Virus record (IMG/VR): IMGVR_UViG_3300045988_060821
Span: 80,819 to 144,818 of that record
Direction: 5' to 3' (one strand)
Origin: a virus
Length of the DNA: 64,000 nt
The translations under genes and the position numbers were made by a program. The notes beneath the pieces were generated by a model, which saw only the letters and a list, made by a program, of their open reading frames with translations, had not been told where the DNA came from and made no database searches. Positions 1 through 64,000 of the stretch are shown piece after piece (the stretch's first letter is position 1; every line of letters begins with the position of its first letter).

Positions 1-2457
1 CAAGCTGAGGCAGCGTTACTGCCAAGCTATCAAGAAGAGTGGAATTCTCTTAAAGAGCTTTATGAAAGCACTACAGATGACGCAGATAGACGAGCTATCA
101 TGGATGAAATCAAGAGCTTGCAAGGTAACATCGTGGATTCCGCGAAAGCTATCGCGGAATGGGCAAATTCTATTGAGGACATTGTCCCAGATGCTGTTGA
201 TGCGGCTTCTGAGAGATTTGCAGCATTTACTGATCAGTTAGAGCATAATACTTCTGTACTAGATACTATTAAAGAGCTTTATACTCTACAGGGTGTAACT
301 TATAAGACTGCGGAAGGATTTAATCGTCTCCAAAAGAATAGCCAAGAAAAACTAAACGCTCAGCTAACATCCGCTAAACTGCAAAGAGGTTGGTACGAAT
401 AGGCTGCTCAGAGATTAGAAGAAGCACAAGCAAAACTCGATTCTCTTGGCGGCGATGAAACTGATTTGCGTTATGATGCTTATAAGAAAGCAAGAGACGC
501 ATATCTAGAGGAGTTTAATGAAGCTCAAGAAGCTTATCTATCTTCTGCTAAAGAAGCAATGGAGACAGCGCAAGATATGTATCTCCAGCAAATTGAGAAA
601 GCGGTTTATGAATTTGGTCAAGCCGTATCCAATGGTGTTGGTCTTGACTTACTACAAGATAAGTACGATCATTATATCGAGCAAAATGAACGCTACTTTG
701 ATAAAGTAAATGAAGCATATCAAGTATCTGCTTGGTATAACAAACTTCAGCAAGACATCGACAATACCACTAACTCCGCGCATAAAGAAAGATTAAAAGC
801 TCTCCAAGAAGAGATTAATCAACGCAGAGAAGGTAATAAGTTATCTCAGTATGACCTTGATATTCTCAATGCTAAATACCAGGTATTACAGGCTTAGATG
901 GCTCTTGAGGATGCTCAAAACGCTAAGAACCAAATTCAGTTAGTAAGAGACAGTCAAGGTAACTGGAACTACCAATATACTGCTAACCAAGATGATATAG
1001 CCAATGCTTAGCAAAATCTTCTTGACGCAGAGAATGATTGGTATAATATCGCTAAACAACAGGTAACTGATGTAACGGGCGAGATTGTTTCCACTTGGCA
1101 AGAGTGTCAGGATAAGATTAAAGACATCTACTCCGATATGACACTTACTGACGAAGAACGCTCCGCGCAGGCGCAAGAAATCTATAAGTATTATAGCGAA
1201 AAGATTAAGTATCTCGAAGAAGAGAAGCAAAACGCGATCGCTGATATGACAGAAGCAGGTAATAAGAACCTGATTGATAACGCGATTATCACAGGTGATA
1301 CTATTACCGACTTAACTGGCATTACCACAGAAGAATTGAAGCAATTAGTAGCCGATTCTGGTGAAAGTATTGCTGATATTTTGATGAAGAATAGCGAACA
1401 GCTAAAAGAGATTGCGGGCAACAATACCGATCTTATCGACAAGTTCAATAATACTTATGCCAAGGATCTTGACGACATGACTCAAAATACAACGAATTTT
1501 GAGGATGAACTCCGCAAGTTATTAGATCAAGCACAGCAAGATTTTGATAACTATAAGGATAAGGTTCAAAATGTTGCTTCTGAAACTGGTACTACTCTTG
1601 ATAATTTGGCACAAGAAACTGATAAGGTTTCCGAAGCTACAGATCAATTAAGAGAACGCGGCGATGAAGCTAAGGATACTCTGTGGGATATGATTGATGC
1701 AGCTCAAAACGCTTCTGACGGTTATTTAGAGTTGGCGCAATCCATCTGGGATACCGTTGAAGCATTGCGTGCTCTTGCTTCTCAACAAGCTCAATTTGCA
1801 GCATCTTCTTCTTCTAAAGGCAATTCTAGTAAGGGTTATGATCCAAATACCGATTATTCTGGTGTTATTATGGATGGTATTGCTAATGGATGGTTAGAAT
1901 ATGGAAGTAAAGAATATAAAGAATTAACAAGCCAACGTGAAAATAAAATTGATGATATGGGATTAACAAAAGAATATTTTGGAACTCGTGGCGATGCGGC
2001 AGATAACCGTTATAAAGATTCTACTTCTGTTGGTCAATATGAAAGTGAAGAAGAATGGAAGAAAAAAATGCAAGCATTGGGCGTTCCTGGGTTTGCTACT
2101 GGTGGATATACTGGTATATTTGATGATGCGAAACTCGCTTTCCTTCACCAAAAGGAATTGGTGTTAAATCAAAGTGATACCGAGAATATTCTCGCGGCAG
2201 TTCAAGCTGTAAGAACTATTGGTACGGATTTGTTTAAGTCTATTGAGAAATCTCTTGATGGTAATGCGATTGCGGCAATGGCTCTTATGGGTCAGAAGCT
2301 CAATCCAGTCGCTACTACACCAATTCAAGATTCTATTGAGCAAACTGTTCATATTGATAAAGTAGAGTTCCCGAATGTGACTAGCCGCACTGAAATTGAG
2401 GAAGCATTTATTAGTCTTACTAATGATGCTGCACAGTGGGCCAGAAGAAAGACTTAA
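1..2457 (+). CDS. Tail tape-measure-like coiled-coil structural protein (5' partial). One continuous frame with recoded TAG at 400-402, 895-897 and 1009-1011.
   Basis: ORF-track pieces 100-402, 466-897 and 1138-2457 are all in the same frame. The only interruptions are TAG. It ends in a TAATAA double stop at 2455-2460, followed by a hairpin. The protein is long, Ala/Gln/Glu-rich and coiled-coil with a Gly-rich C-terminal region, as is typical of tape-measure proteins. Confidence 0.5.
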
Positions 2458-2460
2458 TAA

Positions 2461-2485
2461 GGAGAGCTTTTTAGCTCTCCTTATT
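2461..2485 (+). terminator. Rho-independent terminator (GGAGAGCT-TTTT-AGCTCTCC hairpin plus T-rich tail).
   Basis: Perfect 8-bp inverted repeat immediately after the TAATAA stop. Confidence 0.7.
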
Positions 2486-2507
2486 AAAGGAGTGAAAGGA
2501 GATAAAC

Positions 2508-5500
2508 ATGAATAATATATCTGAACAGCTATTACAGGCTATGGATATTATTACGGAAGAAAAGGTAAGATAGTTAAAATATGATAAAACTATCCAAGCC
2601 ACCGTTTATTCTATTGTAGATGTAGATACTGGAGAATACAAAGTTAGATATAACGGCAACATCTTTTCCGCGTTTAGCGAGGATACTAGTAAAAGCTATT
2701 CTATTAAAGATGTGGTTTATGTCAAAGTGCCAGAAGGTAATTTCTCTAACAAGAAGTTGATTACTTCCTTGGTGACTGCGAAGTCTTTATCCAATGCTTA
2801 GTTATCCGATTTAACTAACTCTGTATTTGAAGTATCTCCTACTTTTGATGCATTGTATGATGGAGCTTATGACGCTTCACAAAGTTACGGAGTAATTGCG
2901 GGAACGCCAGTTGGAGAGATCGGAAGTTCTATTTATATTTTTCAAAATAGTGAGGAATATGAGTAGAATGGATATCACGGTTTATTTCAACAATACTCTA
3001 ACAATTATGAGTATATCCGCCTAAAAGCATCTTTCTTAACTCAGTTCCATAATGTCCATAATCAAGGTAATTATGGCATTGAGGTTGAGTTCTATACCAA
3101 GGATAATAGTAGCGTAAAATATAGATTAGATCTCTAGAACTTTAATGGTAATCCTTATGGATTCTCAGTCTACTCTCCGTAGTAGATTATCCTTAAGGCG
3201 CAGAAGAACTATTTAATGGGACTTAAATCTATTAGACTCTTTGAAGAAGACTTTGTCTATGATAAAATTGTTAAGAATGGCATAGTTACAGATAAAGAGA
3301 ATAGAACTGTTGCTAATATTTTTGTAAAAGATATTTCCCTTTAGTATGTTGATATGCAGGATTTAAGTGATACGACCTATTATCTCATGATTTCTGCCCC
3401 CAAAGGTATTGCCTTTACGGATAAAGTATCTAGCTTGAATTTAGTTGGACGCTTAATTTATAATGGCGAAGACATTATGGATAGTAAGAAATGTGTTTGT
3501 CAATGGTATGAGAGAGACTTAAGCGTGGTTGTTGGTAGCGATGAATATAGCAAGTCCGCAGGTTTCGGATGGAGGAAAATTGACGGGCAAACATCTAGCT
3601 CTCTTACTCTTGATGCAACTGATATTCTATATCAATAGAAGTATAAATTAGTAGTCGTCTATAATGATAGCATTACTCTAACTGCGGAAATCGCTGTATG
3701 GAATCGTAATGCAAGTTATGATTATTCTATTGAGCAAGTTACTGATGGTGCTGATATTAAACTACAGATTAGAAATAATGTTGATAGTGAGTCTTTGGTG
3801 GGAGATTGGTATTTATCTTATCCAGATAATAGTTACAGCTCTGTGCCGGAAGGAGAAAAGAAGTCCGAGATTGTCGTAAGTTCTTATTTGCAATACAGTT
3901 CTGTGACTTTCTATTGCATGGTATATAATTCTGCGGGAGAGTTTATCGGAACTTTAGAACATACTATTGTGAATAGTGAGAGCGAAGATGATGTAACTAT
4001 TAGTTACATCGGTGAAGATTCCTTTAGATACGATGCTAATGGCGATATTTCTATTGAAGACGCAGAGAAAGAAAGAACTCTATAGGTTAATCTAGCATGG
4101 AAGGAAGGATTTGGTACTTCTTATTTCGTGTCTTGGTTAATGAAAGATGCGAATAATAAAGAGTACGAGATCCCTACCTCTAAAGAGCTTGCTTATAGTC
4201 CGGACAACTCTATGCTTGAGAATATTTGGGTTGACAAATATAATATTTTACACTACAATATTAAATAGAAGTATAGAGTTAATTTCAGTAATAATACAGT
4301 TATTATAAAAATAAGAACGATTACAGAATCTATTTATCTATTTAATAAAGAGATTCTTTGTTTGAAAGATGGCGACTAGGGAACTAATGGTACTACCTAT
4401 ATTACCGCGATTCGTCCATGTAATTCAGACGGCGTAAAGTTAAGTGGATTACAGCCTTTAAGATATAATAATGGATGGACTAATGATATTAGGGTTCGTT
4501 GTTATGTTTATAAAGATGGAGAATTGATTAACGGTAATAGTAAGTATTCTATTACATATAAATGGCAAGGAACAAATGTCACAGTAGAGAACAAAGAAAT
4601 GGTTACTGATTCCGTTGATCGAGTTCTAGTGCGCGGTATACCTACGATTTCCGCAGATACCCCTAATGCAGAGTTAGCTTTCTATGTGAGAGTTCAAGTT
4701 ACTATTAAAGATGATAATAGCTCGGTTGATATCTACGCTTCTTATCCTCTTGATGTTATCGTTGGTTCTACCTTGGCGAGTGCTATTGATATTGATACTA
4801 TTCCGTCTTATATCAAATATAATTCTTCTGGTTTAACTCCCTCTTTCTATAGTAACGATATTAACTTCTATTATAATGATGTAGCTTATAATGATAACAT
4901 TACCTCGTTAAACACCAATATCCTTACTATTAAGACAGATAATGGTAAGAAATATTTAGAACCAGCTTCTAGCTTTATCTTTGAGAATATTAAGGATAAT
5001 GATTAGAGCAATATCGGTGTATTAAATCTTGCTATTCCAAATAGTAACGATAGATTAATTCATCCAATTATTATGTATCTTGATACTTATGGTAATGAAG
5101 CTATCAACGGTTGGGATGGAACAGCTCTTGATACTGGCGATGGAGAATATGTATTCGCTCCACAGGTTGGTGCAGGAACAAAAGATAGCCAAAATAGATT
5201 TACAGGCGTAGTCATGGGTAAAGATAGTGGCCAAGATAAAGTGGGTTTATATGGCTATCAGGAGGGCGTTAATACTTTCGGTTTAATGGAAGACGGTACC
5301 GCGTTCTTCGGAGCTTCTAGCGGAGGCGGCCGCATTGAGATTAACGGTAAATCTGGTTCTATTAAAGGCGGCGGTGGAGGAAATAATTCCACTGGTATGA
5401 CTATCAATTTTGCCGATCTTAATCCTGGCAATAATACTACTGCAATCAAGATAGGTGGAGGAGTTTTTGAAGTTACATATAATGGTGCTTTAAAAGCAAC

Positions 5501-6398
5501 CTCTGCGACTATTGAAGGTTAGATTTTTGCTCAGTCTGGTAAGATTGGTTGTACTAGCAGAAATAGTAATGATGGTTGGACTATCGAGAAGAATAAATTA
5601 TATAGCGGAAGTGGAGCAACAAGAGTAGAACTAAATAGTGATAAGGATGAAGAGTTTGCTATTTGGGCTGGTGCTACAAGTTCAACTTCTGCAAAAGATA
5701 GCTATTTTGCAGTTTCTAAAAAAGGTTCTCTCTACGCTAAGCAAGGTAATATTGGCGGATGGATTCTTAAGAGTAAATCTCTTTCTAGCAATAACAATAA
5801 AATTGGTATGGCTAGCTCTGGTTCTTATGTATTTTGGTCTGGTGCAAATACCGGTAATCCAGGTGATACTCCAGATTTTAGCAATAGTGGTACCTACTTC
5901 TATGTTACTAATGGCGGAAAACTCTCTTGTAAGAACGCAGAAGTGCGTGGTAACATTACCGCAGATAGCCTTGAATGTGATAATGGTGAGATCGGTGGAT
6001 GGACTATTAGTAGTAATTCTCTACGAGGCGGAAGCACTTATCTATATTCTAGTGGTCGAATTGTTTGTGATGACCTTAACTGTGATGGTGGCAATATCGG
6101 TGGATGGACAATTGGAGAAGATTCAATTTCTGCTAGTGGCACTATTTTACAAAGTGATGGTAACATTTATACTAGGTTAGGTAGAATTGGTCTGGTCGAA
6201 GGAGAAGATAGCCAAGGTACTACTTATAACTTTGGAATGTAGGCAACTGGCGGTAATGGAAGTGTTATCATTCAAACGACATATGGCAATGGTAACGTAG
6301 CTCTACGTGCCGCGAATTATATTATCTTAAATGGTAATAGACTTACTTGCACAGTGCCAGCAGCTAATCAGTCTGGTATTTATGCAAGATTTGCTTAA
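2508..6398 (+). CDS. Giant virion structural protein (about 1296 aa) with about 13 in-frame TAG codons. The C-terminal half carries repeated GxIGGW(T/I)I motifs (tail fibre or baseplate-spike-like).
   Basis: SD box AAAGGAGTGAAAGGAG then ATG at 2508. ORF-track pieces 3354-3638, 3795-4085, 4524-5006, 5073-5522 and 5808-6242 are all congruent with frame 2508. No TAA or TGA occurs until TAA at 6396-6398. Confidence 0.65.
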
Positions 6399-6411: not shown

Positions 6412-7243
6412 ATGCCGAGTGCTTCTCTTACTTTTGTCAGTGCAAGTCGTTCTAGTGTGCAAATTGAGTATGATGGAAGTGGGTGGAATATCCCTGCCAA
6501 TGGGCCTGAACACAGTTCTGGATGGTCTACTATAACAAGTACTGATACTAGACAAGTTCAGTAGAAAACTGTCACTCAGGTAGTTTATGATGTTGCTGGT
6601 TGTACTACTACTTGGCATTGGAGTTTTAGTGGTGGTAATGGTGGTTCTAGTTCTGTTAAGACTGAAACCATTACCATTGGTGGAATGACAGCAGGATCGA
6701 GAGGTAGTGTCACAGGAAGGCTCTCAGCTACAAGAAGTGCAAAACAAAAAAAAGAAGTTTATACACGCACTCGAACTCGTACTAAAACGACAGTAAAAGA
6801 TGATAAAGGAAATACTACTACTAAGTATGGAGAGTGGAGCGATTGGAGTGAATCGGGTCCAAGAACAACATATAGCTCTGCTAGCAGTAAAAATTTAGGC
6901 TCTGCATCTGATACTTTGGTATTTTATACTAAGCCAGCTGAGTTTTCATGGGGTAGTGGTGTAGACACTGATAAAACTATTTAGGTATCTGGTGGACTTT
7001 CAGCTAGTAAGTGGAATACCTTGGTTGCTAGAGTAGAATAGCGGAAGAACTGGGAAAATTAGTCTGGCAGAGCTAATTATAGTGATGCGGAGGTTAGCTC
7101 TGGTGAATTAGTAACAGCCGCTAAATATAATATTTTAGCTAGAGCACTTGGCGTAAGCCAAGTGACAGCACACACAGATAGAACTACCGGTACACTTATT
7201 ACTGCTAGCGTATTTATTGCATTATAGACTGCGGTTAATGCAT
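6412..7243 (+). CDS. Ser/Thr-rich virion-associated protein (about 277 aa) with recoded TAGs; the stop is TGA.
   Basis: SD box TAAGGAGGG then ATG at 6412. Piece 6685-6984 is in the same frame. TGA at 7241-7243. Confidence 0.5.
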
Positions 7244-7261
7244 GAGCTAAAGGAGATAACC

Positions 7262-7623
7262 ATGTTAAATAAAGATATTGTCACGATGTACCGTGGGTTA
7301 ACAAGCTTGGCTTCCGATCTGGAAACCAAGCTTCCCGCGAAGGTATCATTTGCTATTGTTAGGAATATTAAGCTTTTAACTCCTATTGTTGAAGATATTG
7401 ATTTTGCTCGTCAATCAGTTGCAGCAACTTATGGAGTAGAAGTCGATGGTGGATACAGTATTCCTGAATAGCAAATAGATACAGTTAATTAGGAGTTAAC
7501 TGCGATTGCGGAAACAGAAGTTGATGTTCCTATTGTTAAAGTTAAAATGTCAGATATTGAGAACTTGAATATCTCTGTTGGTATCGCAGAAGCTCTTGAG
7601 TTTATGATAGAGGAAGAGGTTTA
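7262..7623 (+). CDS. Small structural-module protein (about 120 aa, 2 recoded TAG).
   Basis: SD box AAAGGAGATAACC then ATG at 7262. TAA at 7621-7623 sits inside a terminator hairpin. Confidence 0.45.
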
Positions 7624-7647
7624 AGTCTCTTCCTCTTTTCTTTTTGC
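7609..7647 (+). terminator. Rho-independent terminator (GAGGAAGAGG / CTCTTCCTC stem, T-run).
   Basis: 10-bp inverted repeat followed by TTTTCTTTTTGC. Confidence 0.65.
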
Positions 7648-7721: not shown

Positions 7722-10463
7722 ATGCCAATTAGTATTTATCCGCCTACTTTATAGAGTACATAGCCTGCATTTTTAGCCACTACGCCGGACTATGAAATCA
7801 AATATACTCTATAGAAGGTGACAAGTGCCGAGACTATTAAACATATTCAAATTCGAGTAGTTGAATAGCGCTCAAATTCTAGCATTGTAAATACTTCGAA
7901 ATACCCAGACAATATTATCTATAAGAATGTGGATTTGACTAAAGAGTCTAGCCCTTATGGAATTAAAATCCTAACTGCGGACTTGCGGAAATCTTGGTCA
8001 CCAGGCGTGTGTTATAAGATTCAGTTACGCTTTGGATCTACTAGCTTTCCTACTGACTTAAGTTCTTTTGCCGCATGGAAGAAAGAATAGATTAACAATC
8101 AGACTTTCTCTGAGTGGTCTACTGTCATGATCATTAAAGCTATCGCGCAACCAGAAATTTATATCGAGAATGCCGGTACTTTAAGAACAGATGTTATTGC
8201 TAGTAAGTAGACAGAGGCTAGCTTAACTCCATTATTTGTAGGAGATTATATTGATAATGCTTCTGAGGAACCGTTGGAGAAATATAAGTTTGATCTATAT
8301 GATGAAACTGGAACGGATTTAATCGAGTCATCAGATTGGATTCAAGCAGTTAGCGGTAAGAATAACTCTTATCGGTTTAAGACTATGTTGACAAATAACG
8401 AGTCTTATAAAGTTTATTTTTCTATTGTAACGCGCAACGGATATGAAGCAAGAGTATTCTATGACTTCCAAGCTGTTAAAGTATATTTAGAAGCATTAGA
8501 AGGCGTAACAATGCGTGTAGATGATACAGATGTCTATTGTCGTGAAAACGGTTGTATGCGAATTTATCTAACCGCAAAGAATCCATTAACTGGATGTTAT
8601 GTACTTACTCGTGCATCTGAGGAGAGTAATTATCAAGTATATGAGGATTTAAAGTATTTTAATTACTTTGAAGAAACTCTTAATGATAACCTAATTTATA
8701 CAGATTTTATTATCGAGAGTGGCGTCAAATACAAGTATGCTTTCTAGTATCAAAACTCTCAAGGATTGCGGAGCGCGCCTTTGCAAGAAAGTGGTTCTCC
8801 TATTCCAGCGAGAAGTGTTGACTTTGAATACTCTTATCTATATAGAGATGGAGTATAGTTGCGTTTGAAGTATAATCAAAAGCTCAGTAGCTTTAAGCAT
8901 ACGGTACTAGCGAGCAAGCAAGATACCCTCGGAGACCAATTCCCGCATTTAGCGAAGAATGGTTATGCTTATTATGCCGAGTTTCCAATTAGCGGTTTAA
9001 TTAGCTTCTAGATGGATGAAGACTAGACCTTTTTTACTTTAGGGACAGATGGTTATTATTATAATAATGAGTTGGTAATCCCTAAAGATAAGTTTAGTAT
9101 GTCTACTGCGGCGAGAGGAGAGATTACAGCTCCTTCTTATCTTGCTATTGATACTAATATTACCGATGATAATATTTTTATAGAGCGTAAGTTTAGAGAG
9201 AAAGCTGAATAGTTCCTTAATGACTTTACTTATAAACTCTATAAATCTCCAACTGAGGGAAACATTATTGTTGGCCTAATGAATGTATCAATGACACCTA
9301 ATGCATCCCTAGGGCGTATGATTTTTGAGTTCTCTGCTACTGCTTATGAAGTTTTAGAGAATACGCTTGAAAATCTTAACGAGATTGGCATTACTGATAT
9401 TGGAGTTTTTAGTAATGAAGTATCTACCGAAGAACAATCTGCATTTGGTCAGATTAGTGGTATCTATTCAGGATGTCCTGAAGGAGATGATATCTATGCT
9501 TTAATTAAGCAATAGGAAGAGATTGCTGTTGGCGATGGTCGATATAAGTTGTCTCTTATTAATGTCGATTCCTTCTGGATTGAGAGATATCCAACTATTG
9601 ACTTTGATGGTAAGATTTATGAGTTAGAGGCAAAGAAGGCTGAACAAGAGCAAGCTGGAGAAGATACTAAAGAGACAGAAGCTGAACTTACTCGTTGGGC
9701 GGCACTAAAAGAAGCCGCAAGTAATGCTCCATCTTCTGCGGTTAAACTTGCTGTTAATGGAACTGATATTATTGTAGCTCCAAATAGGTTATATAGTGTC
9801 AGAGAGGGCGTCAGCTCTTTAACTATGAAATCTGTTAAATATCCCATTATTGTGAATTATGTCTGCTCTTTAACAAGAGAAAGAAATGATGAAGTCGGTG
9901 AAGTAGAATCTATTGATACTTCCCGTATTTGGGGCTAGATTTCTGGTATCTTCAGCGGAACTGATAAAGTCTTAAAGAACTATAAGTATTACTATGGACC
10001 TGGCGAGACTCCGTATCGTATCTATAGTGATTCTACTGTGGAAGAAGATAAGTTGGGTCGTATCTTGGTAGATAATACGAACTATAATGTTTATAAGACT
10101 ATCAATCTATATGATATTATAGAAGAAGAAACTCGTAAGCAAGTAGAGTTTATCTATAATATTCAAGGTGGATTTGAGCAAGATGAAGATGGTAAATGGA
10201 CAGATGGAATTATCTATTATTCCTTCTCTGATATTACCTCCTTCGACATTGAAGCAGACCCGCAAACCATCCTATATATCGGCCAAGAAAAAGATGGTAG
10301 CGATAAGCATCCAGTTATGCTCGGTCCAACTGGTCGATATACCCTTAGCCCGATGGATGGTATGATTAAGTATATTGCTTTATAGAAACCACAATTTGCG
10401 GTTATTAACTATAAATGCCTAACCGCGCAGACAACAATGAAGTATAGCAAAGAAAGGAGTTAA
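7722..10463 (+). CDS. Large virion structural protein (about 913 aa) with many recoded TAG codons.
   Basis: SD box AAAAAGGAGG then ATG at 7722. Pieces 8274-8747, 9279-9515, 9549-9938 and 10038-10385 all share the frame. The first non-TAG stop is TAA at 10461-10463. Confidence 0.6.
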
Positions 10464-10468: not shown

Positions 10469-12372
10469 ATGTTTGAGTATCTTAATGACATGGATTTTCT
10501 AATCTAGTTAGATAAGTTGCATATGCGAGTACAGTATGCAAAAATTATTCTCCTTTCTTTCAAGGACGAAGAACCTATTAAAGAGATTTAGGGTTCTATC
10601 ACGAGTGGCAACTTGAGTGTTAATGGTTCTTCCGCAATTAGAAGAACCATTAACCTTACTATGCTTGCTTCTATTGATAATAGTAATCTTGAAGATATTG
10701 ATAACGAGATTTCTATTAACAAGAAGATTAAAGTCTTAATTGGTTATGACAATCCATTAAAGTCTTATAAGAACTATGGAGATATTATTTGGTTTCCTTG
10801 CGGCTTGTTTGTTTTATCCTCTGCTAATATTAGCCGCTCTACTAGTGGTTGGAATATTTCTATTACGGGTAAAGATAAGATGTGTTTATTAGACGGAACC
10901 GCAGGCGGCACTTTGCCGGCATCAATAACCTTTCATGAAAGTCTTGTTTAGCTTGATAATGGAGACGTAGAGATTCAATATCCTACTATCTTTCAAATTA
11001 TCTATGAAGCGGTAAATCACTGGGGTGGAGAAGCTATTGAGAATATTATCATTACTGACATTGATGAAGAGATTAAGATGTTAGTAAGATATATGGGAGA
11101 TAAGCCAGTATATTTCTCCAATGACTACTAGAGTTTAAGCTTTGAAGCGCAAGCAGATTATCCGCATATGTTTAGTTATGGACAAGATGTTGGATATAAG
11201 TATACCGACTTTACCTATCCAGGAGAGTTGGTATTAAATGCAGGAGACACGGTAGTAACTCTATTAGACAAGATTGTTAGCACTCTTGGCAATTATGAAT
11301 ATTTCTATAATATAGATGGCAAGTTCGTATTTCAAGAGATTAAGAATTATCTTAATACCGGTAGTCCTCTATTAGAGTTAAGTCCAGAAGACTATGTACG
11401 TTCATATAATAATGCAAAGTTTTTATACTCGCTTACCGATCTTGACACGACAACCGCGATTACCCGCAATCCTAAGTATGATAATGTGAAGAATGACTTT
11501 TATGTTTGGGGCAAGCGTAAGACTTCAACAGGCGTAGAGGTGTCTATCCGTTATCATCTTGCTATTGATGATAAGCCAGATATTGACTTAGCTATGTAGA
11601 ATATGTGGGAAGTCAAAGATAAAGAATCTAACCTTATTGTGCGTTATGATTTCAATACTCTTGATGAATACAGCGTGGATGGTTATGTAGTTACCTTAGT
11701 AGGTACTCCATGCGACGAGTGGAGAGAAGAGCTATACCGTCGTGCTCTTAATGCTTAGGTATCTAATAGTGTCTATGATAACTATTATGATTCAGAGCTA
11801 ATTGCGGAGTGGCGTAATCTATATAATCCAATGAACAAGAATTGGGATGCTACAAATCATTGGAACCCAGATGTATTTAATGACCCAGGTTCTATTAACT
11901 TCTGGCTAGATTTTATAGATACTAGTTCCGCTCTCGGTAAGTATTCTATTAAGAATATTGGCCGTAGGACTAAAGTCGTTAATAATAATGACATAAAAAC
12001 CGTATATAATAGCGAAGTTCCTGATGTTGTATTTATTGAAGGATTAGATTAGGACTTGATTGTTAAATATCAAGGGATTGGTTAGAGATTCTTTATTCTA
12101 ACCAATGAATACTATGATATGTTTTCAATAAGCACTACTGGAACTAGTTGCTTTGACCAAATTCGAGAAATGATGTATTAGAATTTATGTTATAATACTA
12201 CTATTTCTTTAACCTGTTTGCCGAAATATTATATAGAGCCTAATAATATAATTAGGGTTGAAGATAAAGATAGCAATATCTATGGTAATTATCAAATTAC
12301 TCAATATTCTCTACCTCTTACTTATAATGGCGCTATGAGTATTACTGCAACAGAAGTTTTAACACGAGTATA
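10469..12372 (+). CDS. Virion structural protein (about 634 aa, baseplate or tail-associated) with recoded TAGs.
   Basis: SD box AAAGGAG then ATG at 10469. Pieces 10613-10951, 11168-11599 and 11831-12052 are congruent. TAA at 12370-12372. Confidence 0.55.
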
Positions 12373-12386
12373 AGGAGGAGAGGGCG

Positions 12387-12965
12387 ATGTCTGCTATTGG
12401 ACAAATCTACTATCGTGTAGTAGATACAAGTAGCACTGGCGATGGAAAACATTATATTTCCTCTGGAATTGATATTTACAATGATATTGTAAGTGCTTCT
12501 AGTGCCAAATAGTTTACCAAAGTTGGTATTCAGGCTCCACCGGGAGCGCAAGTTGTCATGAATGCTAGCAAGACTATCATGATCGGCCGCACTGGTATTT
12601 ATGAGCTTGATGAAGATATTGTTATTACAAGTATGAAATTCGTTCGTCCTACAGTTTATATTAAAGACGAGGAAGAATCAGAAAGTAAGAAACAAGAAGG
12701 CGAGAAGATTATCAAGGAGGCTAAGGCGGCTCTTGAGGCCGCTATCGCTGCATTGGGAGAAGAGCCTACTGATCCAACTTCTGATGCTTATAAAACCTAT
12801 TGGAATGGATATAATGAAGCCAATGAGACTTACATTGCTGCATTTCAAAAAGGTAGTGCAATTTTAAATCAAGGTCTAAATGGAGTTTACAAGGAAGATA
12901 AAACTGTTGTTGGCGAGTTAGATAACGTGATTGTAGACTTTATTTACGATCCACTCTAGGGATAA
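12387..12965 (+). CDS. Hypothetical virion protein (about 192 aa, 2 TAG).
   Basis: SD box TAAGGAGGAG then ATG at 12387. Piece 12558-12959 is in frame. TAA at 12963-12965. Confidence 0.5.
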
Positions 12966-18115: not shown

Positions 18116-18368
18116 CTGTAATCGTATTTATTTATCCGTCGCAAGGACGAAATAGTCAAGTTCTCCTTAGATGAAAAGGCATCTACCTATAATATACTAT
18201 TTAATAATATGTTCTATTCCTTCTCCTTCTTAGTCCACAAAGGTGAACCAATGCATCCAGAATAAACCATAATTAGATGGACAATAATATATTCTGGGGT
18301 ACTATTCTAGGTGTTGCTCGTCTGCGCTGCTTCGCAGCTTGACTTGCAACGTGATAGCTCCATCTAAT

Positions 18369-22138: not shown

Positions 22139-22148
22139 GGAGGGTCCC

Positions 22149-48451: not shown

Positions 48452-48763
48452 TCAGTTATCGTCTCCCACAGTATTTGTGTATCCTACAATGTTGAATTGA
48501 TTGAGCCAGCTATCTAGTTCATCAATAACAGCAATACATTTCATACCTCTAGCTTTTGTTAGAAAATATCCATAGCTAATAAATCCTAAATTTTGCGGTA
48601 GATTACGCTCTTTTGTTAACTCTAAGAACTTTTTAACCATCAGTTGAGGATGTTGAGTAACAAAGAGTACCATCTTATCAGGATACTTATGTGCTAAATC
48701 ATTTGCGTAGTACATTAAGCTAGTTGTCTTACCTGCACCACGACTTGCAATTACCTTAAACAT
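48452..48763 (-). CDS. Small P-loop NTPase/kinase-like protein (103 aa).
   Basis: Walker A SRGAGKTT. SD box GGAGG then ATG. TGA abuts the thyA-like ATG. Confidence 0.4.
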   Translation of the reverse strand: MFKVIASRGAGKTTSLMYYANDLAHKYPDKMVLFVTQHPQLMVKKFLELTKERNLPQNLGFISYGYFLTKARGMKCIAVIDELDSWLNQFNIVGYTNTVGDDN

Positions 48764-56702: not shown

Positions 56703-57026
56703 TTAAATGGTTGCTTCATCCTCGACTACTTGCTGCTATTGTTTCTCACACATAGCTAAATCATAAGTAATCCCACCCTTGCGGTGATCGGATTTACTCA
56801 TGTTTAAGTAAAAAGAGCAAACAATACCATGCGCAGACCATGGCAATCCTACTAATGCACTAATCCATGGGAGAGTACCCAGATAACCAAGATGTACGCA
56901 ATAGAAAGCAAGAGCAATACCGGAGATAGTTACAATCCACAAGAGAGAGCGAATGTCGCAAATAAGCTATTTAGAAAATTCTTTTTTCTAGCTATGTTTT
57001 CCTTTTCCTCTTGTTTGACGACCCAT
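56703..57026 (-). CDS. Holin-like small membrane protein (about 107 aa, 2 TM, charged termini). Its ATG overlaps the endolysin TAA (TAATG); 3 recoded TAG.
   Basis: ORF 56736-56942 extends upstream through TAGs to an ATG at 57026 and downstream through TAG 56736 to TAA 56703. Two hydrophobic helices, located immediately after the endolysin. Confidence 0.45.
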
Positions 57027-58432
57027 TATTGACCACTCTTTTCAGCATAACGCTTTAGAACAGCCGCAAATTCGCCACGAGTCATAAAGCGTTTTGGCAT
57101 CAACTGACCTTTTTCATTGCCATTGATTAAGCCATTAGCCTGTGCCCAAGTCATTGCGTCTTGCTCCCAGGTGACTGGTTGCGCAGCGAGCTGACTAAGA
57201 TATACATTCATCATTTCATTGAATTTTTCTTGAGTCATGTCTTCATCATCCTCCTCGATAACTTTAGACTGCATTAAAGCAGCAACATCTTTGCGAACGG
57301 TTGTCATATCTTTGCCATATTTCTTGAACCAATGGTATACATCAGCATGGTTACTACCGAGGCCCAACTGATAGCTATCTTGATGGCAGAGAATGGTTGG
57401 AACTGTTACGCCATTTACATTTACAGAACCATTTGGATTGATATTATATGTCTTACATAAGTAGGCTGTCAATTCGCAAGCCTCTTTGTAGACTTTAGCG
57501 AAGTAATCGGGGTCACTTAGATTGTCTTCGCAGATTTCAAACTGAATCCATCCAGTATTACAGCTACCTTTAGAGCCTGAGCCGCAACCCCAAGGTCTAT
57601 AATTCCAAGGTAGTGTTTGTACTGCGGCTACGCTTCCGTCAGCAAGAGCACCAATCCAAGCGTTTACACCAGCCTGCTATGAGCTATGATTCCAATCGGT
57701 TCTACTGGTATTTTTACCAATTTTAGTAATCAGAGATTGATAGTTCTTGTCGTTCTCAGACGGTTGAACATAACGCTTAATAGTTTTATTATTGGCGCCT
57801 GTACTGTGCCAGAGGACGCCTTTAATATCCATCTTGCGGGTTTGCTTATAACAAGTGCTATTAGTCATCATGCAAACCAATGGGTGATTAGCGTTTGAAT
57901 ATTTCATCTTAGCTATTTCCTCCTTTTGCGTTGAATAAATATTGAAGTAACGTTGGCTATATAACGCACGCTATTTTAGTGTGCTAGAGCTCTGATCTGC
58001 CGGTCTTTCAAACTGAGTGACCACCAAATTAGATGCTTCTTCAACAGATGAGGTAGTCTTCAAGATTTTTAATAGCTAGGAGTAACTTGTAGTTAGTTCC
58101 TGATATAAAAAATCTAGTTGGGTGTTTAAGTCACCAATAGACTTTCCTCGACTTTTACACAGCTAAAACAGACCTTGCTTGCGGCTCCAATATGTCCATT
58201 GAGCTAAACCATATCCCGCAGAATCATGCGTGAAATTGGTATAGGAGCCGTTATCAACAGCCGCAGTATACGAGGCATCGTTCATTCCTAACTTACTCTC
58301 ATATGAGTTCTATAAGTTAGTTGGAATAAGTCCGCTTTCCGCGAATAGATTCCCCATTAGACCTGCGGCACCGCAGTTACTTAATCCTTTTGATTTGAGA
58401 TAATCCCAAATAACTTGAGCATTATCCGCCAA
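57026..58432 (-). CDS. Three-domain endolysin: N-terminal lysozyme-like (phage tail lysozyme family) domain, central Amidase_2 (N-acetylmuramoyl-L-alanine amidase) and C-terminal SLH cell-wall-binding domain. About 468 aa with about 6 recoded TAG.
   Basis: One frame runs from TTG 58432 (SD box GGAGGTGAGG) through pieces 57677-57907 and 57026-57472. N-terminal domain motifs AGLMGNLFAESG...GYGLAQWT...FERP. Amidase_2 motifs LWHSTGANN...NAWIGALADGSV...GWIQFEICE...ILCHQD. SLH domain W..DAMTWAQANGLINGNEKGQLMPKRFMTRGEFAAVLKRY. Confidence 0.8.
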
Positions 58433-58493: not shown

Positions 58494-59867
58494 TTAAATT
58501 TTATCAGCGATAGAAGCAATCTTACTACGATAGATATTCTTAAGAGTTACCTCTCCATAAATATCCTTACCTCTGAATACTTTTGATACTCTCCGCATAC
58601 CATTGTTTGCACCAGAGAAGTGAATATCATCAACCTGAGTTTTTTCATCACCATCAATAATGCAAATACAATCTTCGCCAACACGCTGTAGAGCGAGTTT
58701 CATTAGTGTGCGGTCAAGGTTCTAAGCTTCAGAAATATAGATACCTGCGTTCATACCAGAAGTATCATAACCACGAATATCAGAGAATGGTAGTAAAACT
58801 AATTTACCTTCTGCGATCAGTCTCTCAACTTCCTCTCGACCACCAAACTTACTACTTAGCAAGTTACCAATCTGAGAGTCAAGTAGCTTTTCATCTTTTG
58901 TCCCAGGATAGTATCCGAGACGAGCAGAGTTAGCAGTAGCAACAGTATTGCAGAAGATAATAATTTTATCTAGTTCATGGGCTTCCATTTTTGCCATTAA
59001 ATAAGCCAAAGAAACGAAAGTCTTTCCGCTACCAGCTGGACCTTTAACAAGAGTTAGTTTGTTATTACGCAAACTATCAAATAGCATCTTCTGATAAATA
59101 TCTCCAGAATATGGAGAAATCTTACCAAACCACTTAGAGTTAATAGTCTTAGAAGAAAGGTATCTGAACTCTTCGCCTGTCCAAACCCGCAAATCGACAA
59201 TCTCTCCATTGCTATTTTTCAGGATAAGATACTGTCCTGGTAATAGGTTAAAGGAATTATCGTTCGGGTTCTGATAAAACTCTGCTAGAGCTTCGTCGCT
59301 ATAAGTAACTTCAATATAACCAGTATAATCGTCTACTTCTTCTGGAACGCTCTCAATCATTCCATTACCAAAGAAGCAGTTAGCGATATGCTTTAGACTT
59401 AAATCGTTAGTTACAAAGACAATATCTTTTTCTTTGTCGCACGCAATGGCATCAGACAAGATGCGAGTATCATCAGTAACATCGAAACCAGCTTCTTTAA
59501 TTACGAACTCATTGTCTACTTTGTGCGGGATTACTTCATACTTATCTGGATATTCTTCAAATAAATGAAGCAATAGACGAGCCGAATACTTGATGTCAGC
59601 ATCCTTGTTTGAAGCTGTCTTAATTCTCTCTAATTCTTTTAATGTAATTGAGGAAACTAAGAAGGGCTTCTTGTCCTGCTCAAATAGACTTTCTCCGGCT
59701 AACAAAAGGGAGCAAGTATCGTAGAAGTATCTATCTGTTGGAAACCGTACATCATAGTTCATGTTCATCTTCCTCTTCGTATGTAGTGGCAAATCCGATT
59801 GCCCTAGATTGAGTTTCTCCTTCACTAAGTTTATTAATCGCAACATTGTGACGAACAATCCTTTCAT
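58494..59867 (-). CDS. phoH: PIN-domain plus PhoH-like P-loop ATPase (about 457 aa; recoded TAG at 58722-58724).
   Basis: GPAGSGKTF Walker A and LGYYPG PhoH motif. The C-terminal piece 58494-58703 (..IIDGDEKTQVDD..) is in frame via TAG. N-terminal PIN-like region. Confidence 0.8.
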
Positions 59868-60021
59868 TTATATTAGCTTTAATAAGTTCTGTAATAGCAC
59901 TTATAATTTCACTAATACTATTGAGTGTAAGGTGGCACCTACTGTGATAAGGAGAACTCCAATTAAAATATTTACCAATAAAACCACCTCTTATGTTATT
60001 ATAATAAATAAGAGAAGTTCG

Positions 60022-60486
60022 TTAATTATTATCGGCCTTCTGTCTAAAGCGTTTGACAGATTCAATAGCTTTATCTTGACCAAGAATATATTTATGTAAC
60101 ATATTTTTCTCTTTATCAAGAGCCTCTTTAAGTGCGTCGGCTCTATATTTGCAGCGCATCATATTTCGATTAAAAGCGCCTAATGGGTCCACTTCCGCAG
60201 GAGTTTTAACGCCAAGACCTAATACCTCTTGATAAAACTGATTGCGGACATTAAACTTATCTCTCTCTTGCTTATAAAAATATTCAAGGGCTTCAATTCT
60301 TGCTTTTGATAGAGCAATATTATATCCAACTTTTTTAGAGTAGAAACCTTCATCACCCTTACTTAGTACAGCAGCGCCATGAAAAGTATGCCCTTGATAG
60401 CAAATCTTTACATTGGTGATACCTTCTTCTTCCCAATAATCTTTCATAATCACAGGAGCTTTATATATAGCTTTAACCAAATTCAT
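60022..60486 (-). CDS. Hypothetical protein (154 aa).
   Basis: Intact ORF only. Confidence 0.3.
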   Translation of the reverse strand: MNLVKAIYKAPVIMKDYWEEEGITNVKICYQGHTFHGAAVLSKGDEGFYSKKVGYNIALSKARIEALEYFYKQERDKFNVRNQFYQEVLGLGVKTPAEVDPLGAFNRNMMRCKYRADALKEALDKEKNMLHKYILGQDKAIESVKRFRQKADNN

Positions 60487-60666
60487 ATAGTTTTGTTCTC
60501 CTTATTTAATTCTTTATCTATATGATAGCAAAATTTTATAGATAAATCAAATTTGCCCTATTTCTCCGAAAAATTTGCTGGGCCTATGTGCGCGGAAACT
60601 CGGAGATCGACGATGCTAGCGACAAAAAAAAAAGAACCGCGCTCTTACGAACGCGGTTCTTCAAAA

Positions 60667-62163
60667 TTACTCCTTATTGGAGGAGTCTGCCAACTTGCCA
60701 CCGAGGAAACCGGTGAGCAAGGTTTTCACATCAATACCGAGGGATTCGCTCAGTCCCTCAGAAACCTGAGCGACATTCTTGATAATGTTGCCAGACAGCT
60801 TGCTGGTGTCATCACCGAACATCACAATCTTGTCAACATTGGTGTACGCCTGACCGGTAGCCTGAGCAATAGCAGGCAACTGCTGGAAGTACAGCTTGAG
60901 GGCTTCCATCTGCATATCCATCTTGGCGGCTTCGCCGTACTGCTTCATAGCTTCTGCTTTCTTCATAAGACCTTCGGCTTCTGCCTCAGCCTTAGCCTGA
61001 ATCGCGGCAGCCTCAGCTTCACCACGAGCCTTAGTAGCCGCAGCTTCTGCCTCACCCTGAACACGAACAGCTTCAGCCGTAGCACGCTGGGCTTCAGCTC
61101 TTTGCTCTGCCTCAAAGCGCTCGGCTTCCGCAGTCTTCTGACGCTCATACAGGTCTGCCTCAGACTGCTTCTGAGTAGCGTACAGCTTAGCATCAGCTTC
61201 CTGCTGAGCAGCATACTTCTTAGCTTCCGCGGTCTTCTTGACCTCAGCCTCCAGAGCACGCTCCTTAATGGCAACTTCGCGCTCCTTCAAGTCGATTTCC
61301 TTTTCCTGACGAGCAATGTCAGCATCTGCCGCAGCCACATCACGCAGTTTACGCTGGTTCTCAGACTCAATCTCCATAGCAGCATTAGCCTGAGCCTGCT
61401 TGGTATCAGCTTCCTGCTTCAACTGAGCCTTCTGAATAGCCAGACTATTGTTGCGCTTGGCAATCTCTTCCTCAGCCTTTACGCGGGCATCATTAGAAGC
61501 CTTAGCGTTCTCAGCCTCGGCAACCGCAATCTCACGCTGGGCATTAGACTTAGCGATTGCGGCGTCCTTACGGATCTGCTCGACGTTATCAATACCAAGG
61601 TTGGTGATAACATCATTGTCGTCAGAGAAGTTCTGGACATTGAAGGAAACCAGTTCCAGACCGAAACGAGCCAGATCAGGCACAGCATTTTCCTGCACCT
61701 TTTCGGAGAATGCCTTGCGATCACCGACCATCTCGGTCAGCTTCATCTGACCCACAATCTCACGAATATTACCTTCCAGAAGGTCGTTAATCTTCTGTGC
61801 GATCTGATCGCGAGAGACATTTAGGAAGTTCTGAGCAGCAAGAGCAATCATCTCTTCGCTCTGACCCACGCGTACAGAAACGGTAGAATCGACTCGTACA
61901 TTGATGTATTCAGCAGTCGGCACGGCAGAGCCAGTCTTAACATCAATCTGAATGGCTCCTAGTGCCAGCTTATCCAGTCGCTCCAAGAAGGGAATCTTGA
62001 TGCCAGCCTTACCGACCAAAATACGAGGTTTCTTGTGCAGACCAGAAATGATATAGGCAACATCAGGTGGAGCCTTTACATAACCAGAAGCCAAGAGGGC
62101 GATAAGAGCAATAGCAATAATCACCGCAGGAACAAAAGGAAGAATAGTCATCAAAATTTCCAT
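60667..62163 (-). CDS. Flotillin-like SPFH/band-7 protein (498 aa; FloT/YuaG-like). No TAG, with a GC-rich coiled-coil.
   Basis: N-terminal TM anchor, SPFH domain, then a long Ala/Glu-rich (EA-repeat) coiled-coil typical of bacterial flotillins. SD box TTAAGGAG then ATG. Confidence 0.75.
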   Translation of the reverse strand: MEILMTILPFVPAVIIAIALIALLASGYVKAPPDVAYIISGLHKKPRILVGKAGIKIPFLERLDKLALGAIQIDVKTGSAVPTAEYINVRVDSTVSVRVGQSEEMIALAAQNFLNVSRDQIAQKINDLLEGNIREIVGQMKLTEMVGDRKAFSEKVQENAVPDLARFGLELVSFNVQNFSDDNDVITNLGIDNVEQIRKDAAIAKSNAQREIAVAEAENAKASNDARVKAEEEIAKRNNSLAIQKAQLKQEADTKQAQANAAMEIESENQRKLRDVAAADADIARQEKEIDLKEREVAIKERALEAEVKKTAEAKKYAAQQEADAKLYATQKQSEADLYERQKTAEAERFEAEQRAEAQRATAEAVRVQGEAEAAATKARGEAEAAAIQAKAEAEAEGLMKKAEAMKQYGEAAKMDMQMEALKLYFQQLPAIAQATGQAYTNVDKIVMFGDDTSKLSGNIIKNVAQVSEGLSESLGIDVKTLLTGFLGGKLADSSNKE

Positions 62164-62346
62164 GTGTTACTCCTTAATATATTAAATTGTTTTATTTATA
62201 AATCAATGCGTTAGCATTGTTTATCCGTAGTAGCCTCCATCGGGAGGATCTCGCTTATAAGATTTACAAAACCCAGGGATACAGCCACAATTAGGATAGG
62301 TATATATACATTTATTACATCTTATGATAGGGCTTGACTCTTCAAT

Positions 62347-62907: not shown

Positions 62908-62913
62908 TATAAG

Positions 62914-63618
62914 TCACTTCCTTTTAGGTGTTGTAATGGCTTCAATTCTCGACATTCCATTTTTCATACGCTTGTATACTGAATTTTTTGAAATATTATA
63001 AATGGAACACCAATCTTTGAAATTGTGAAATTCTCCATTGATTTCAATTAACTTGCTGGCTTCTTCTATGGGGATGTTATTTGGAATGATTTCCAGTGTT
63101 TCTGGATTATATTCCCTAAATATAAATCCCTTTACTGTTTTATATCTGTTACTACCGGATGCGCATTTTCTAATACTAGCTCTATCAGTTCCTAACTCAT
63201 GAGCTGCGGCAGTTATTGTAGGAAAAAATTTCTTTTCTCCACTTGTTTCTGAAATGGCACAAATGGGTGTTGCCAATTTAGCTCGTACTTCTGGATCATC
63301 AAACGGATATTCTGTGTTTAGAGTTTGATTATATCCATGCTAAGAGGTTAAGCTATTATATTCAATAATTGCATCATGCTCTAATTTATATCTTTCTTCT
63401 GGAGTTTGAATATCTTTTATTAAGATTTGAAAATCAAAATTCTCTATACCATATTTTCTTATGGCTCGATATAATGGATATTCATATCCTGCGCGAGATT
63501 CGAGACGAGCATTTTGCTAATGTTCATACCACCTTGTTGTAAATCCTCGTGACTAGTCACTGGAACCAATATAGGTTTTATGGTTAATCAGATTTTCGAT
63601 TTTATAAATGAAATACAT
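62914..63618 (-). CDS. Free-standing GIY-YIG homing endonuclease with C-terminal NUMOD/IENR-type HTH DNA-binding domains (about 234 aa, 3 recoded TAG).
   Basis: SD box GGAAGGTGATAAA then ATG at 63618. N-terminus MYFIYKIENLINHKTYIGSSD-Q-SRGFTTRWYEH...E..YN..L..GYN. C-terminal piece 62914-63276 carries KKFFPTITAAAHELG...VKGFIFREY HTH modules. TGA stop. Confidence 0.75.
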
Positions 63619-63707
63619 TTTATCACCTTCCATTTATAAATGGAAATTCTTACAGACTCTTTTATTACTTCTGACCTCATCTTTGATAGTCATTGAAAAA
63701 CTTATTC

Positions 63708-64000
63708 TTAATGATGCACACGCACCTCGATATTAGAAAAACCCCAATTAGTCTTAGGGAACTCTTTTTCAGTAGGAATAGAAAATCCCTTCTTCATCTT
63801 CTTAATTGCGGAATCGGGGATTCTGGCAACGCCAGTCCGCTGAGCATTACGCTCAAGAGCGGTTTCGACAGGGACATCAATGACTTCAAAGGTCAGTTTG
63901 GTATGCGGATCTGCGATCAACCGACCAAGGAGCTTTGCGCGAGAAGCGGGGCTAATATGAGTCGCATCCGCAAACACAACATCAATACCAAGTTCCATAG
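63708..64000 (-). CDS. C-terminal part of a P-loop kinase-like (polynucleotide-kinase or AAA_33-like) protein. The N-terminus lies outside the window.
   Basis: ...VVFADATHISPASRAKLL...TFEVIDVPVETALERNAQR pattern. The ORF runs off the window edge. Confidence 0.35.
   Translation of the reverse strand, partial: MELGIDVVFADATHISPASRAKLLGRLIADPHTKLTFEVIDVPVETALERNAQRTGVARIPDSAIKKMKKGFSIPTEKEFPKTNWGFSNIEVRVHH

Follow-up and report, generated by a model that had tools for sequence, protein, structure and literature searches.

Gene-by-gene partition of in-frame TAG codons in a partially recoded gut phage

Partial recoding of stop codons has been described in eight phage clades, in-frame stops being present in 26-71% of genes on average, according to clade (Borges et al., bioRxiv 10.1101/2021.08.26.457843). 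In the sections of that study considered here, structural and lysis genes are recoded, replication genes are variably standard and suppressor transfer RNAs (tRNAs) are present; in Agate phages, an early gene harbours an intron endonuclease that is strongly recoded; and recoding is hypothesized to time the late and lysis genes, the proposed route leading via a rare stop codon and the acquisition of a suppressor. The same sections cite T4-like phages with large tRNA arrays, in which codon usage is partitioned by gene class. Proteomic proof of code 15 comes from crAss-like phages (PMC9523058), and the 136-kb phage phAss-1 of the Phassvirus group shows TAG recoding in 41 of 147 open reading frames (ORFs), with three tRNA-Sup(CUA) genes and 36 tRNAs (PMC10607447). 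Here we analyze the distribution of in-frame TAG codons in a 64,000-nt stretch of DNA (the window; IMG/VR record IMGVR_UViG_3300045988_060821, positions 80,819 to 144,818). It is a piece of a ~149-kb tailed gut phage known from metagenomes, of which contigs of 145-149 kb are common in public assemblies, and the finding is a rediscovery of the published phenomenon in a further lineage.

TAG codons proved to be strongly partitioned among the genes of the window. Gene starts were placed by Shine-Dalgarno sites, boundaries followed code 15, and gene identities were taken from PHROG, Pfam and tblastn searches. After three spurious and several doubtful small ORFs had been dropped and six small minus-strand genes added, the curated set comprised 64 genes with 20,113 codons and 135 in-frame TAGs. 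Dispersion across these genes gave a chi2 of 285; in 50,000 simulations that distributed TAGs according to gene length, chi2 averaged 63 and did not exceed 144. Moreover, 33 genes were TAG-free, where 16.5 were expected and the simulated maximum was 28. The non-uniformity persisted when genes were weighted by their content of glutamine (Gln) codons. Virion genes carry 59 TAGs in 5689 codons (1.04 per 100) and replication and nucleotide genes 5 in 7010 (0.07 per 100; odds ratio 14.7, Fisher p 1e-15). On the minus strand from position 27917 onwards, two GIY-YIG genes and the lysis cassette account for 24 TAGs in 1114 codons, and the remainder for 10 in 10,233. TAG-rich and TAG-free genes are intermixed on both strands, alternating within 1 kb; strand or regional mutation bias thus cannot explain the pattern and was rejected.

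A first-pass annotation, made from the letters of the window, had proposed just such a partition by gene class, and it stands: uniform density was not found with corrected gene boundaries. Its zero counts were exact for DnaE (1298 codons), topoisomerase II A and B, ligase, Dda, primase, DHFR and ThyA, as well as for the flotillin, BclA-like, Cys-rich and His/Tyr-rich genes, and so were its counts for NrdD (1), DnaB (1), the holin-like gene (3) and the GIY-YIG gene at 62914-63618 (3). Six other counts needed correction: 14 rather than 13 for the gene at 2508-6398, 14 rather than ~10 for that at 7722-10463, 3 rather than 2 for RecJ, 8 rather than 7 in the 159 codons of RuvC, 5 rather than ~6 for the endolysin, and 13 rather than 15 or more for the GIY-YIG gene at 48763-49680. 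Missing from its list were several TAG-free exceptions, namely a holin candidate identified through PHROG, two tail-fibre genes and the membrane gene at 15755-16204, as was the TAG-poor tape-measure fragment.

Several comparisons bear on how TAG is read. ORFs of at least 100 codons, measured stop to stop, cover 76% of the window under the standard code and 98% with TAG read-through, whereas TGA read-through raises coverage merely to 80%; in relatives, coverage likewise rises with TAG read-through. In a codon-by-codon alignment of orthologues that took in 87 related loci, all 84 TAG differences from relatives of at least 97% identity, in either direction, pair TAG with a Gln codon (77 CAG and 7 CAA). 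Among relatives at 50-80% identity, Gln is encoded by 46-55% of the non-TAG codons opposite TAG, and alignment of the window's serine invertase with Bin3 (PDB 2r0q) places Gln opposite 4 of 6 aligned TAGs. Other PDB alignments were uninformative on the decoded residue, with A/E opposite the NrdD TAG and L opposite two TAGs of a reverse transcriptase (RT), and that of RuvC was too weak for use. The single NrdD TAG, at residue 116, lies within the conserved N-A-N motif, so that full-length NrdD requires read-through. The first 59 genes called end in 47 TAA and 12 TGA codons and the 5 later additions in 4 TAA and 1 TGA; that none of the 64 ends in TAG partly follows from construction, because TAG was treated as sense and ends were defined by TAA or TGA. 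No in-frame TAG examined resembles a true stop, and in RecJ and PhoH, the two genes with near-C-terminal TAGs that were checked, profile alignments continue past these codons. Judged from these alignments, TAG is a glutamine codon in this phage.

That the TAG-rich genes are instead annotation artefacts, that is, pseudogenes, wrong frames or pairs of short genes, has a negligible chance of being true. Choice of ORFs by length did mislead in three cases, in which the ORF proved spurious: 60553-62337 (plus strand) is antisense to the flotillin gene, 18079-18501 (minus) overlies the template repeat of a diversity-generating retroelement (DGR), and 15768-16235 (plus) had likewise been picked by length. 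For the annotated genes, such an origin is refuted: profile matches span the TAGs near full length in RuvC, invertase, RT, endolysin, RecJ, NrdD and portal, public assemblies hold the same full-length gene calls, and TAG positions are conserved among strains.

A suppressor tRNA gene exists in a conspecific genome. ARAGORN found no tRNA gene in the window, and a tRNA search of 45 loci around DnaE and flotillin found none either. Walking conspecific IMG/VR contigs led, ~20-33 kb past the right end of the window, to an array of 27 tRNA genes and a transfer-messenger RNA (tmRNA) on the same strand as the replication block (contig IMGVR_UViG_3300045988_054378). Within it lies a 91-nt tRNA(CUA) gene (L119:394-484 in our numbering of loci; Rfam tRNA, 54.5 bits). 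In a relative whose DnaE is 79% identical, the tRNA(CUA) measures 76 nt (L120:18463-18538), compared with which the conspecific version carries a 15-nt insertion in the variable region. In both versions U1-U72 is unpaired and position 73 is G; the tRNA-Gln(UUG) of the phage also has G73, together with a weak A1-U72 pair. By the textbook Gln identity elements, U1-U72 and G73 are compatible with Gln charging, and we infer that the tRNA(CUA) is charged as Gln. About 120 nt upstream of the suppressor lies a sigma-70-type promoter match (TTGAAA, 17 nt, TATAAT, extended -10; 11/12), a consensus match and not a proof of function. Rfam detected tRNAs and the tmRNA near the suppressor, and no ribozyme family at gathering score. 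Neither a release factor nor an aminoacyl-tRNA synthetase was seen among the genes annotated in the window or in the conspecific flanks that were fetched (~55 kb), with ~25 kb of the genome unfetched and most genes beyond the right end not subjected to family searches.

Other features of the array are recorded here for their own sake. The tmRNA (L119:3167-3510) encodes the tag DNNYFDSHMAA, and HNH endonuclease genes are interspersed among the tRNA genes (L119:1-14000). A tRNA-like gene at L119:8563-8636, kept in several strains (L095, L100-L103), has the 8-nt anticodon loop GUUAAAAG, for which ARAGORN calls the four-base anticodon UAAA.

The plus-strand structural part of the window (1-15.7 kb) holds the 3' end of the tape-measure gene and the tail/baseplate module. 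The tape-measure portion (1-2457; PHROG 34405/4211) has 3 TAGs in 818 codons. The seven tail/baseplate genes that follow (2508-6398, 6412-7245, 7262-7624, 7722-10463, 10469-12373, 12387-12965 and 12978-14897) together have 52 in 4071 codons, with TAG making up 21-50% of their Gln codons; they are called with identical lengths in public assemblies. Directly downstream are the first TAG-free tail-fibre gene (14917-15699, plus; phrog_1591) and the membrane gene mentioned above. The minus-strand DGR (16.8-20.9 kb) comprises the RT gene (16850-18064; phrog_1423, E 4e-82) with 9 TAGs in 404 codons, a gene which by position and size is probably the accessory gene Avd (18501-18995; 5 TAGs in 164 codons) and sits between the template repeat and the target gene, and the target gene itself, with its variable region at the 3' end (19077-20852; 1 TAG in 591 codons).

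Tail-fibre-like genes, a serine invertase, the PHROG holin and several genes of unknown function occupy 21-27 kb on the plus strand. The second TAG-free tail-fibre gene (22149-22742) precedes the invertase gene (22818-23423; phrog_125), which has 7 TAGs in 201 codons. The PHROG holin candidate (23473-23856; phrog_13712, E 3e-33; Pfam Holin_LLH match under the cut-off) is TAG-free, with a CAA:CAG ratio of 1:6, and is an exception to the rule that lysis genes are TAG-rich. Two small genes of unknown function (24001-24646) carry 3 TAGs each, 2.3 and 3.9 per 100 codons, and are TAG-rich in nearly all groups of relatives compared. Next to them, the Cys-rich (phrog_16490), BclA-like (phrog_20016) and His/Tyr-rich genes (24674-26583) are TAG-free and conserved in relatives.

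From 27 to 64 kb, the minus strand carries RuvC, the replication and nucleotide genes, lysis genes, PhoH, flotillin and the two GIY-YIG genes. The RuvC-like resolvase gene (27438-27917; phrog_159) is the densest of all, TAG accounting for 57% of the Gln codons in it. The RuvC start and the stop of the TAG-free dUTPase gene overlap, and no terminator separates the two genes, so that any difference in output between them would be translational. The replication and nucleotide block (27917-56561) consists of 15 annotated genes, 12 of them TAG-free: dUTPase, NrdD, guanylate kinase, DnaE, Dda helicase, RecJ, primase, DnaB, Sak4, DHFR, ThyA, ligase, topoisomerase II A and B, and RNase H. The block is broken only by the GIY-YIG homing-endonuclease gene (48763-49680; phrog_7168/5123; 305 codons), which lacks a Shine-Dalgarno site and has a terminator-like hairpin ahead of it (49723-49690). 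The lysis cassette (56703-58432) consists of the endolysin gene (57026-58432) and the holin-like membrane gene (56703-57026), recognized through phrog_20388/15001 and the Pfam families Phage_lysozyme2 and Amidase_2, and is flanked by strong terminator-like hairpins (58488-58463 and 56698-56663). PhoH (1 TAG), a TAG-free hypothetical gene and flotillin follow at 58494-62163, and the second GIY-YIG homing-endonuclease gene (62914-63618; phrog_314) has 234 codons. This gene is found in L078, L079 and L081, and a metallophosphatase-like gene occupies the place in L080, L082 and L083, a strain variation expected of a mobile homing-endonuclease gene. Beside NrdD, in the nucleotide-metabolism block, lies a TAG-free gene for a membrane protein of the formate/nitrite transporter family (29352-29981, minus; Pfam E 4e-10).

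The upstream structural module was fetched from a conspecific contig and its genes were compared across 14-15 conspecific genomes. Pfam and PDB sequence searches gave no name for the capsid or tube candidates, and the major capsid protein was identified by its fold instead. This HK97-fold protein (342 aa; L204:2523-3551) has no TAG in the conspecific genomes and a CAA:CAG ratio of 17:207. Its gene's neighbours, of 226 aa (L204:1824-2504; CAA:CAG 0:126) and 181 aa (L204:3623-4168), have no TAG either, nor does a 312-aa virion structural protein (L204:7268-8206; phrog_2729; CAA:CAG 4:71), and a 177-aa protein preceding the tape measure (L204:10001-10534) has 2 TAGs in 4956 codons pooled over 28 loci. 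The same module contains the portal gene (L221:7951-9555; phrog_2739, E 3e-82) with 10 TAGs, a 579-aa candidate terminase (L221:5774-7513) with 9, four connector-region genes of unknown function with 0.8-2.5 TAGs per 100 codons, a 519-aa protein of unknown function (L204:8374-9933) with 11, and the full tape measure, which in a conspecific genome has 2902 aa and 26 TAGs. The candidate terminase is proposed by position and matched no Pfam family. Its halves match separate families, phrog_15503 (residues 5-229) and phrog_24618 (residues 353-578), which may have been built from standard-code fragments of one recoded gene.

Beyond the right end of the window, 21.7 kb contain 6 TAGs in 6496 codons, 3 of them in a nuclease gene. 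Thus, a minus-strand region of ~58 kb (window 27917-64000 plus ~22 kb beyond) is near TAG-free save for the lysis cassette and the homing nucleases, and would be translatable almost wholly without the suppressor. The auxiliary genes on this side are nearly all TAG-free (L078:1-9300 and L092:1-19000; per-gene counts from L092). They include NAMPT, NAD synthase, PRPP (phosphoribosyl pyrophosphate)-synthetase-like, isochorismatase, Thg1-like, RNA ligase, AAA_33 kinase-like and metallophosphatase genes, a set that resembles NAD-salvage and tRNA-repair genes.

The near absence of TAG from the replication block and the region beyond it, together with the TAG-rich tail genes, portal, lysis cassette and RuvC, agrees with a purely temporal gate, in which TAG would hold back all late and lysis genes until the suppressor accumulates and the TAG-free genes would be the early ones. 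The existence of the suppressor tRNA, the apparent co-transcription of RuvC with the TAG-free dUTPase gene, which would leave any difference between them to translation, and the low frequency at which rare TAG variants in replication genes are kept (see below) fit as well. The gate nevertheless fails to account for the functionally late capsid gene and three neighbouring genes of the virion module, which are TAG-free, or for the gene preceding the tape measure, which is nearly so; the two tail-fibre genes and the PHROG holin are also TAG-free though late by function. Moreover, TAGs in NrdD and RecJ are common to all conspecific copies compared, TAG shows no enrichment towards the 5' ends of genes, the sigma-70-type match upstream of the suppressor suggests that host polymerase could transcribe it at once, and the axis of codon bias described below explains TAG content beyond class. 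Of the first-pass proposal that recoding gates late and lysis genes, the TAG-poor replication genes, the suppressor and the TAG-rich lysis cassette and RuvC hold up, while the TAG-free capsid, PHROG holin and tail fibres contradict it. The proposal is partly supported, gating being plausible as an incomplete account, and a purely temporal gate appears quite unlikely.

The partition is conserved. TAG density in RuvC is 4-5.4 per 100 codons where relatives share 60-99% DnaE identity and 1.2 below 60%, and densities remain at 0-0.3 per 100 in DnaE, Dda and dUTPase in all groups of relatives, and at 0-0.7 in primase, DnaB and Sak4 as well as in the Cys-rich, BclA-like and phrog_2367 genes. Values are lower, and the contrasts less marked, in relatives below 60% DnaE identity. 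Within the species, all 8 TAG polymorphisms in replication genes of the conspecific genomes are found at frequencies of at most 0.13, whereas 12 of 20 polymorphic TAG sites elsewhere reach at least 0.2 (difference p 0.004). Such low frequencies in replication genes are what purifying selection against TAG would produce.

This conservation bears on the suggestion, also made in the first pass, that the TAG-free genes were recently acquired from standard-code sources. Composition lends it something: GC content at third codon positions (GC3) is slightly higher in TAG-free than in TAG-containing genes (0.36 vs 0.31, p 0.003), and three genes are outliers in GC content, namely flotillin (60667-62163, minus; Band_7), the most atypical gene, with 50% in a 39% GC genome and a CAA:CAG ratio of 1:32, the Cys-rich gene (48%) and the phrog_2367 gene (47%). 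The two gene sets nevertheless share their usage of most synonymous codon families, while Leu, Lys, Arg, Pro and Gly codons are moderately shifted. TAG terminates none of the 33 TAG-free genes, and across relatives of 99% to ~55% DnaE identity TAG-free genes keep their synteny and their low TAG content, as found for the orthologues of DnaE, Dda, primase, DnaB, dUTPase, NrdD and the Cys-rich, BclA-like and phrog_2367 genes. Even flotillin is conserved above its neighbours: between strains that share 86-97% identity in the adjacent genes the protein is 100% identical, and it still reaches 93% where those genes are at 67-81%. It appears to be old and under strong constraint rather than a recent arrival. 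Recent acquisition is therefore highly improbable, and for the core genes it is contradicted.

Codon usage supplies the evidence for a neutral alternative, in which near-neutral CAG-to-TAG changes under AT pressure would accumulate in genes of low expression, with no regulatory role. Polymorphism within the species is almost wholly between TAG and CAG, TAG positions are uniform within genes, and TAG density correlates negatively both with CAG preference (rho -0.57) and with GC3 outside the Gln codons (rho -0.48, p 6e-5). CAG makes up 0.30 of CAA+CAG in TAG-containing genes and 0.57 in TAG-free genes, and in the former (CAG+TAG) amounts to 0.48 of all Gln codons, so that TAG seems to have displaced CAG in particular. 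Yet when the share of TAG among Gln codons is fitted by a binomial model, membership in the early block (p 7e-12) and the codon-bias axis (p 1e-6) each contribute given the other (likelihood-ratio tests), and early genes with low GC3 are TAG-free (DHFR 0.25, guanylate kinase 0.28). RuvC and the invertase gene, which have the most positive residuals, lie 2- to 3-fold over the expectation of the model, the density of RuvC is kept in relatives to ~60% DnaE identity, and TAG variants remain infrequent in replication genes. When grouped post hoc, the DNA-acting enzymes (RuvC, nucleases, invertase and RT) have ~3-fold the TAG density of virion genes (p 5e-5). Mutation-selection balance as the full explanation consequently seems unlikely to us. 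A further feature of context is that the base before in-frame TAG is G in 10.5% of cases, compared with 25% before CAA/CAG in the same genes (p 5e-5).

We favour the explanation, to which we assign a probability of about 70%, that TAG is a costly, suppressor-dependent Gln codon whose density is set gene by gene through selection on output, earliness and independence of the suppressor. The phage tRNA(CUA) would decode TAG in competition with host release factor 1, and decoding would be slow or leaky, and not yet possible when infection begins. TAG would be purged from replication, nucleotide-metabolism and auxiliary genes, which the unmodified pool of host ribosomes must translate, and likewise from the most abundant late proteins, that is, the major capsid protein and the probable tail-tube and decoration proteins. 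A C-to-T change readily turns CAG into TAG, and TAG would persist, or be favoured, in low-copy virion proteins (portal, connectors and baseplate/tail) and in the lysis genes, and most of all in the DNA-cutting and DNA-rearranging enzymes (RuvC, the two GIY-YIG nucleases, invertase and the DGR RT/Avd). Each TAG may tie the output of these genes to the level of the suppressor, such that their synthesis would be delayed and attenuated. What the data show directly is the pattern, how far it is conserved, the reading of TAG as Gln and the suppressor gene; the temporal classes, the protein abundances, the efficiency of suppression and any benefit to the phage are inferred.

Several points weigh against this explanation. 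The classes 'early', 'late' and 'abundant' are assigned from function and fold rather than from expression data, and the 'early block' was defined after the data had been seen. Evidence on the capsid, portal and suppressor comes from conspecific contigs (~98% DnaE identity) and not from the window, and the capsid model is modest (predicted local distance difference test score, pLDDT, 61). The cells in the comparisons of TAG among relatives and strains are not phylogenetically independent and do not represent independent events. The two-factor model is misfitted by the tape-measure fragment, with 3 TAGs where ~16 are expected (the most negative residual), and by TAG-free genes of low GC3 (BclA-like and tail fibre), and leaves a residual overdispersion of 90 on 56 degrees of freedom. 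The TAGs of NrdD and RecJ, fixed among the copies compared, also sit poorly with purging from replication genes. Finally, within genes there is no 5' bias of TAG (Kolmogorov-Smirnov p 0.30; first-TAG test p 0.66), and the +4 nucleotide context is not significant (p 0.057), so that there is no sign of TAGs having been optimised as gates.

A further reading is that TAG acts as a graded, per-gene control of dose and timing rather than as an early/late code switch, which we offer tentatively, as a possibility that we lean slightly against. Genes whose products are needed in high copy (hundreds, as for capsid and tube) or before the suppressor is present would then carry no TAG, low-copy virion parts would carry ~1-2 per 100 codons, and enzymes hazardous to the phage's own DNA (RuvC, homing nucleases, invertase and DGR RT/Avd) 2-5 per 100, with yield dropping roughly as a power of suppression efficiency. 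If true, stop-codon recoding would be a general means of setting the stoichiometry of proteins and of keeping selfish or hazardous genes in check within shared operons.

The two DNA-rearranging systems of the window have further features of note. The DGR (16850-20852, minus) is complete, with RT, the probable Avd gene and a template repeat of ~103 nt within 18300-18480; its variable region lies at the 3' end of a Big_3/DUF6273 target gene, and 22 of 23 mismatches fall at template adenines. The RT gene starts with TTG AGT TAG TAG TAG ACA, the three TAGs (18050-18058, minus) being codons 3-5, and this 9-nt triple-TAG insertion is present in the window and L084 and absent from L085-L087. The cassette at 21107-23423 (plus), which comprises two tail-fibre-like genes and the serine invertase gene, is absent from some strains that are otherwise near-identical (L085 and L086). 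Immediately ahead of the invertase gene is a perfect 12-bp inverted repeat (22761-22790), and no second recombination site was found in the window; the cassette may serve to switch host range, as modules of the Gin/Cin type do.

As for the phage itself, its flotillin protein is indexed in 376 blocks of a public metagenome assembly collection, which indicates that the phage is widespread there. The GC content of the window is 38.7%. Megablast of window bases 1-25000 against deposited phage genomes gave no match, and the closest DnaE among these genomes, from Enterococcus and SPbeta-like phages, is ~40% identical. Because the ribosome-binding sites are strong and of the AGGAGG type and DnaE resembles those of SPbeta and Enterococcus phages, the sequence suggests a Firmicutes host. 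The window offers a clean, population-backed case of a partially changed code in a large phage whose host is probably a member of the Firmicutes. A simple rule by which late genes are locked fails, because the capsid gene is unlocked, and the data point to selection on translational output and suppressor dependence. On the practical side, standard-code annotation splits the recoded genes.

Compared with the phages of Borges et al., as described in the sections considered here, the present phage is alike in its standard-compatible replication genes, in the in-frame stops of part of the structural and lysis genes and in its suppressor tRNA. Structural and lysis recoding extends here to most tail genes, portal, connectors, endolysin and the holin-like gene, but not to the capsid and others. 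The phage also resembles Agate, being close to it in size (~149 kb) and having a strongly recoded homing endonuclease within an early region. Unlike the phages in those sections, it shows a mosaic at single-gene resolution within operons, its capsid and other probably abundant late genes are TAG-free, and the DNA-cutting and rearranging enzymes are the densest in TAG, not the endolysin (TAG at 17% of Gln codons). These three features, together with the frequency spectrum of TAG variants, are additions that we did not meet in those sections of Borges et al. and that may be published. phAss-1 is comparable as a large human-gut phage with partial TAG-to-Gln recoding (terminase, tape-measure, portal and tail-fibre genes) and a large set of tRNAs, and without a dedicated aminoacyl-tRNA synthetase; the present phage differs in that one tRNA(CUA) was seen in the fetched part of the conspecific genome, and given the lack of a megablast match and a DnaE identity of ~40% at best, the phAss-1 group is not a close relative. 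As in T4-like phages, synonymous codon use differs by gene class, here alongside 27 tRNA genes and a tmRNA, and the probable high-output genes prefer C/G-ending codons and, for Gln, CAG. Unlike in T4-like phages, as cited in the same sections, the 'rare codon' here is a stop that depends on a phage tRNA and competes with termination, and its effect could be all-or-none rather than graded.

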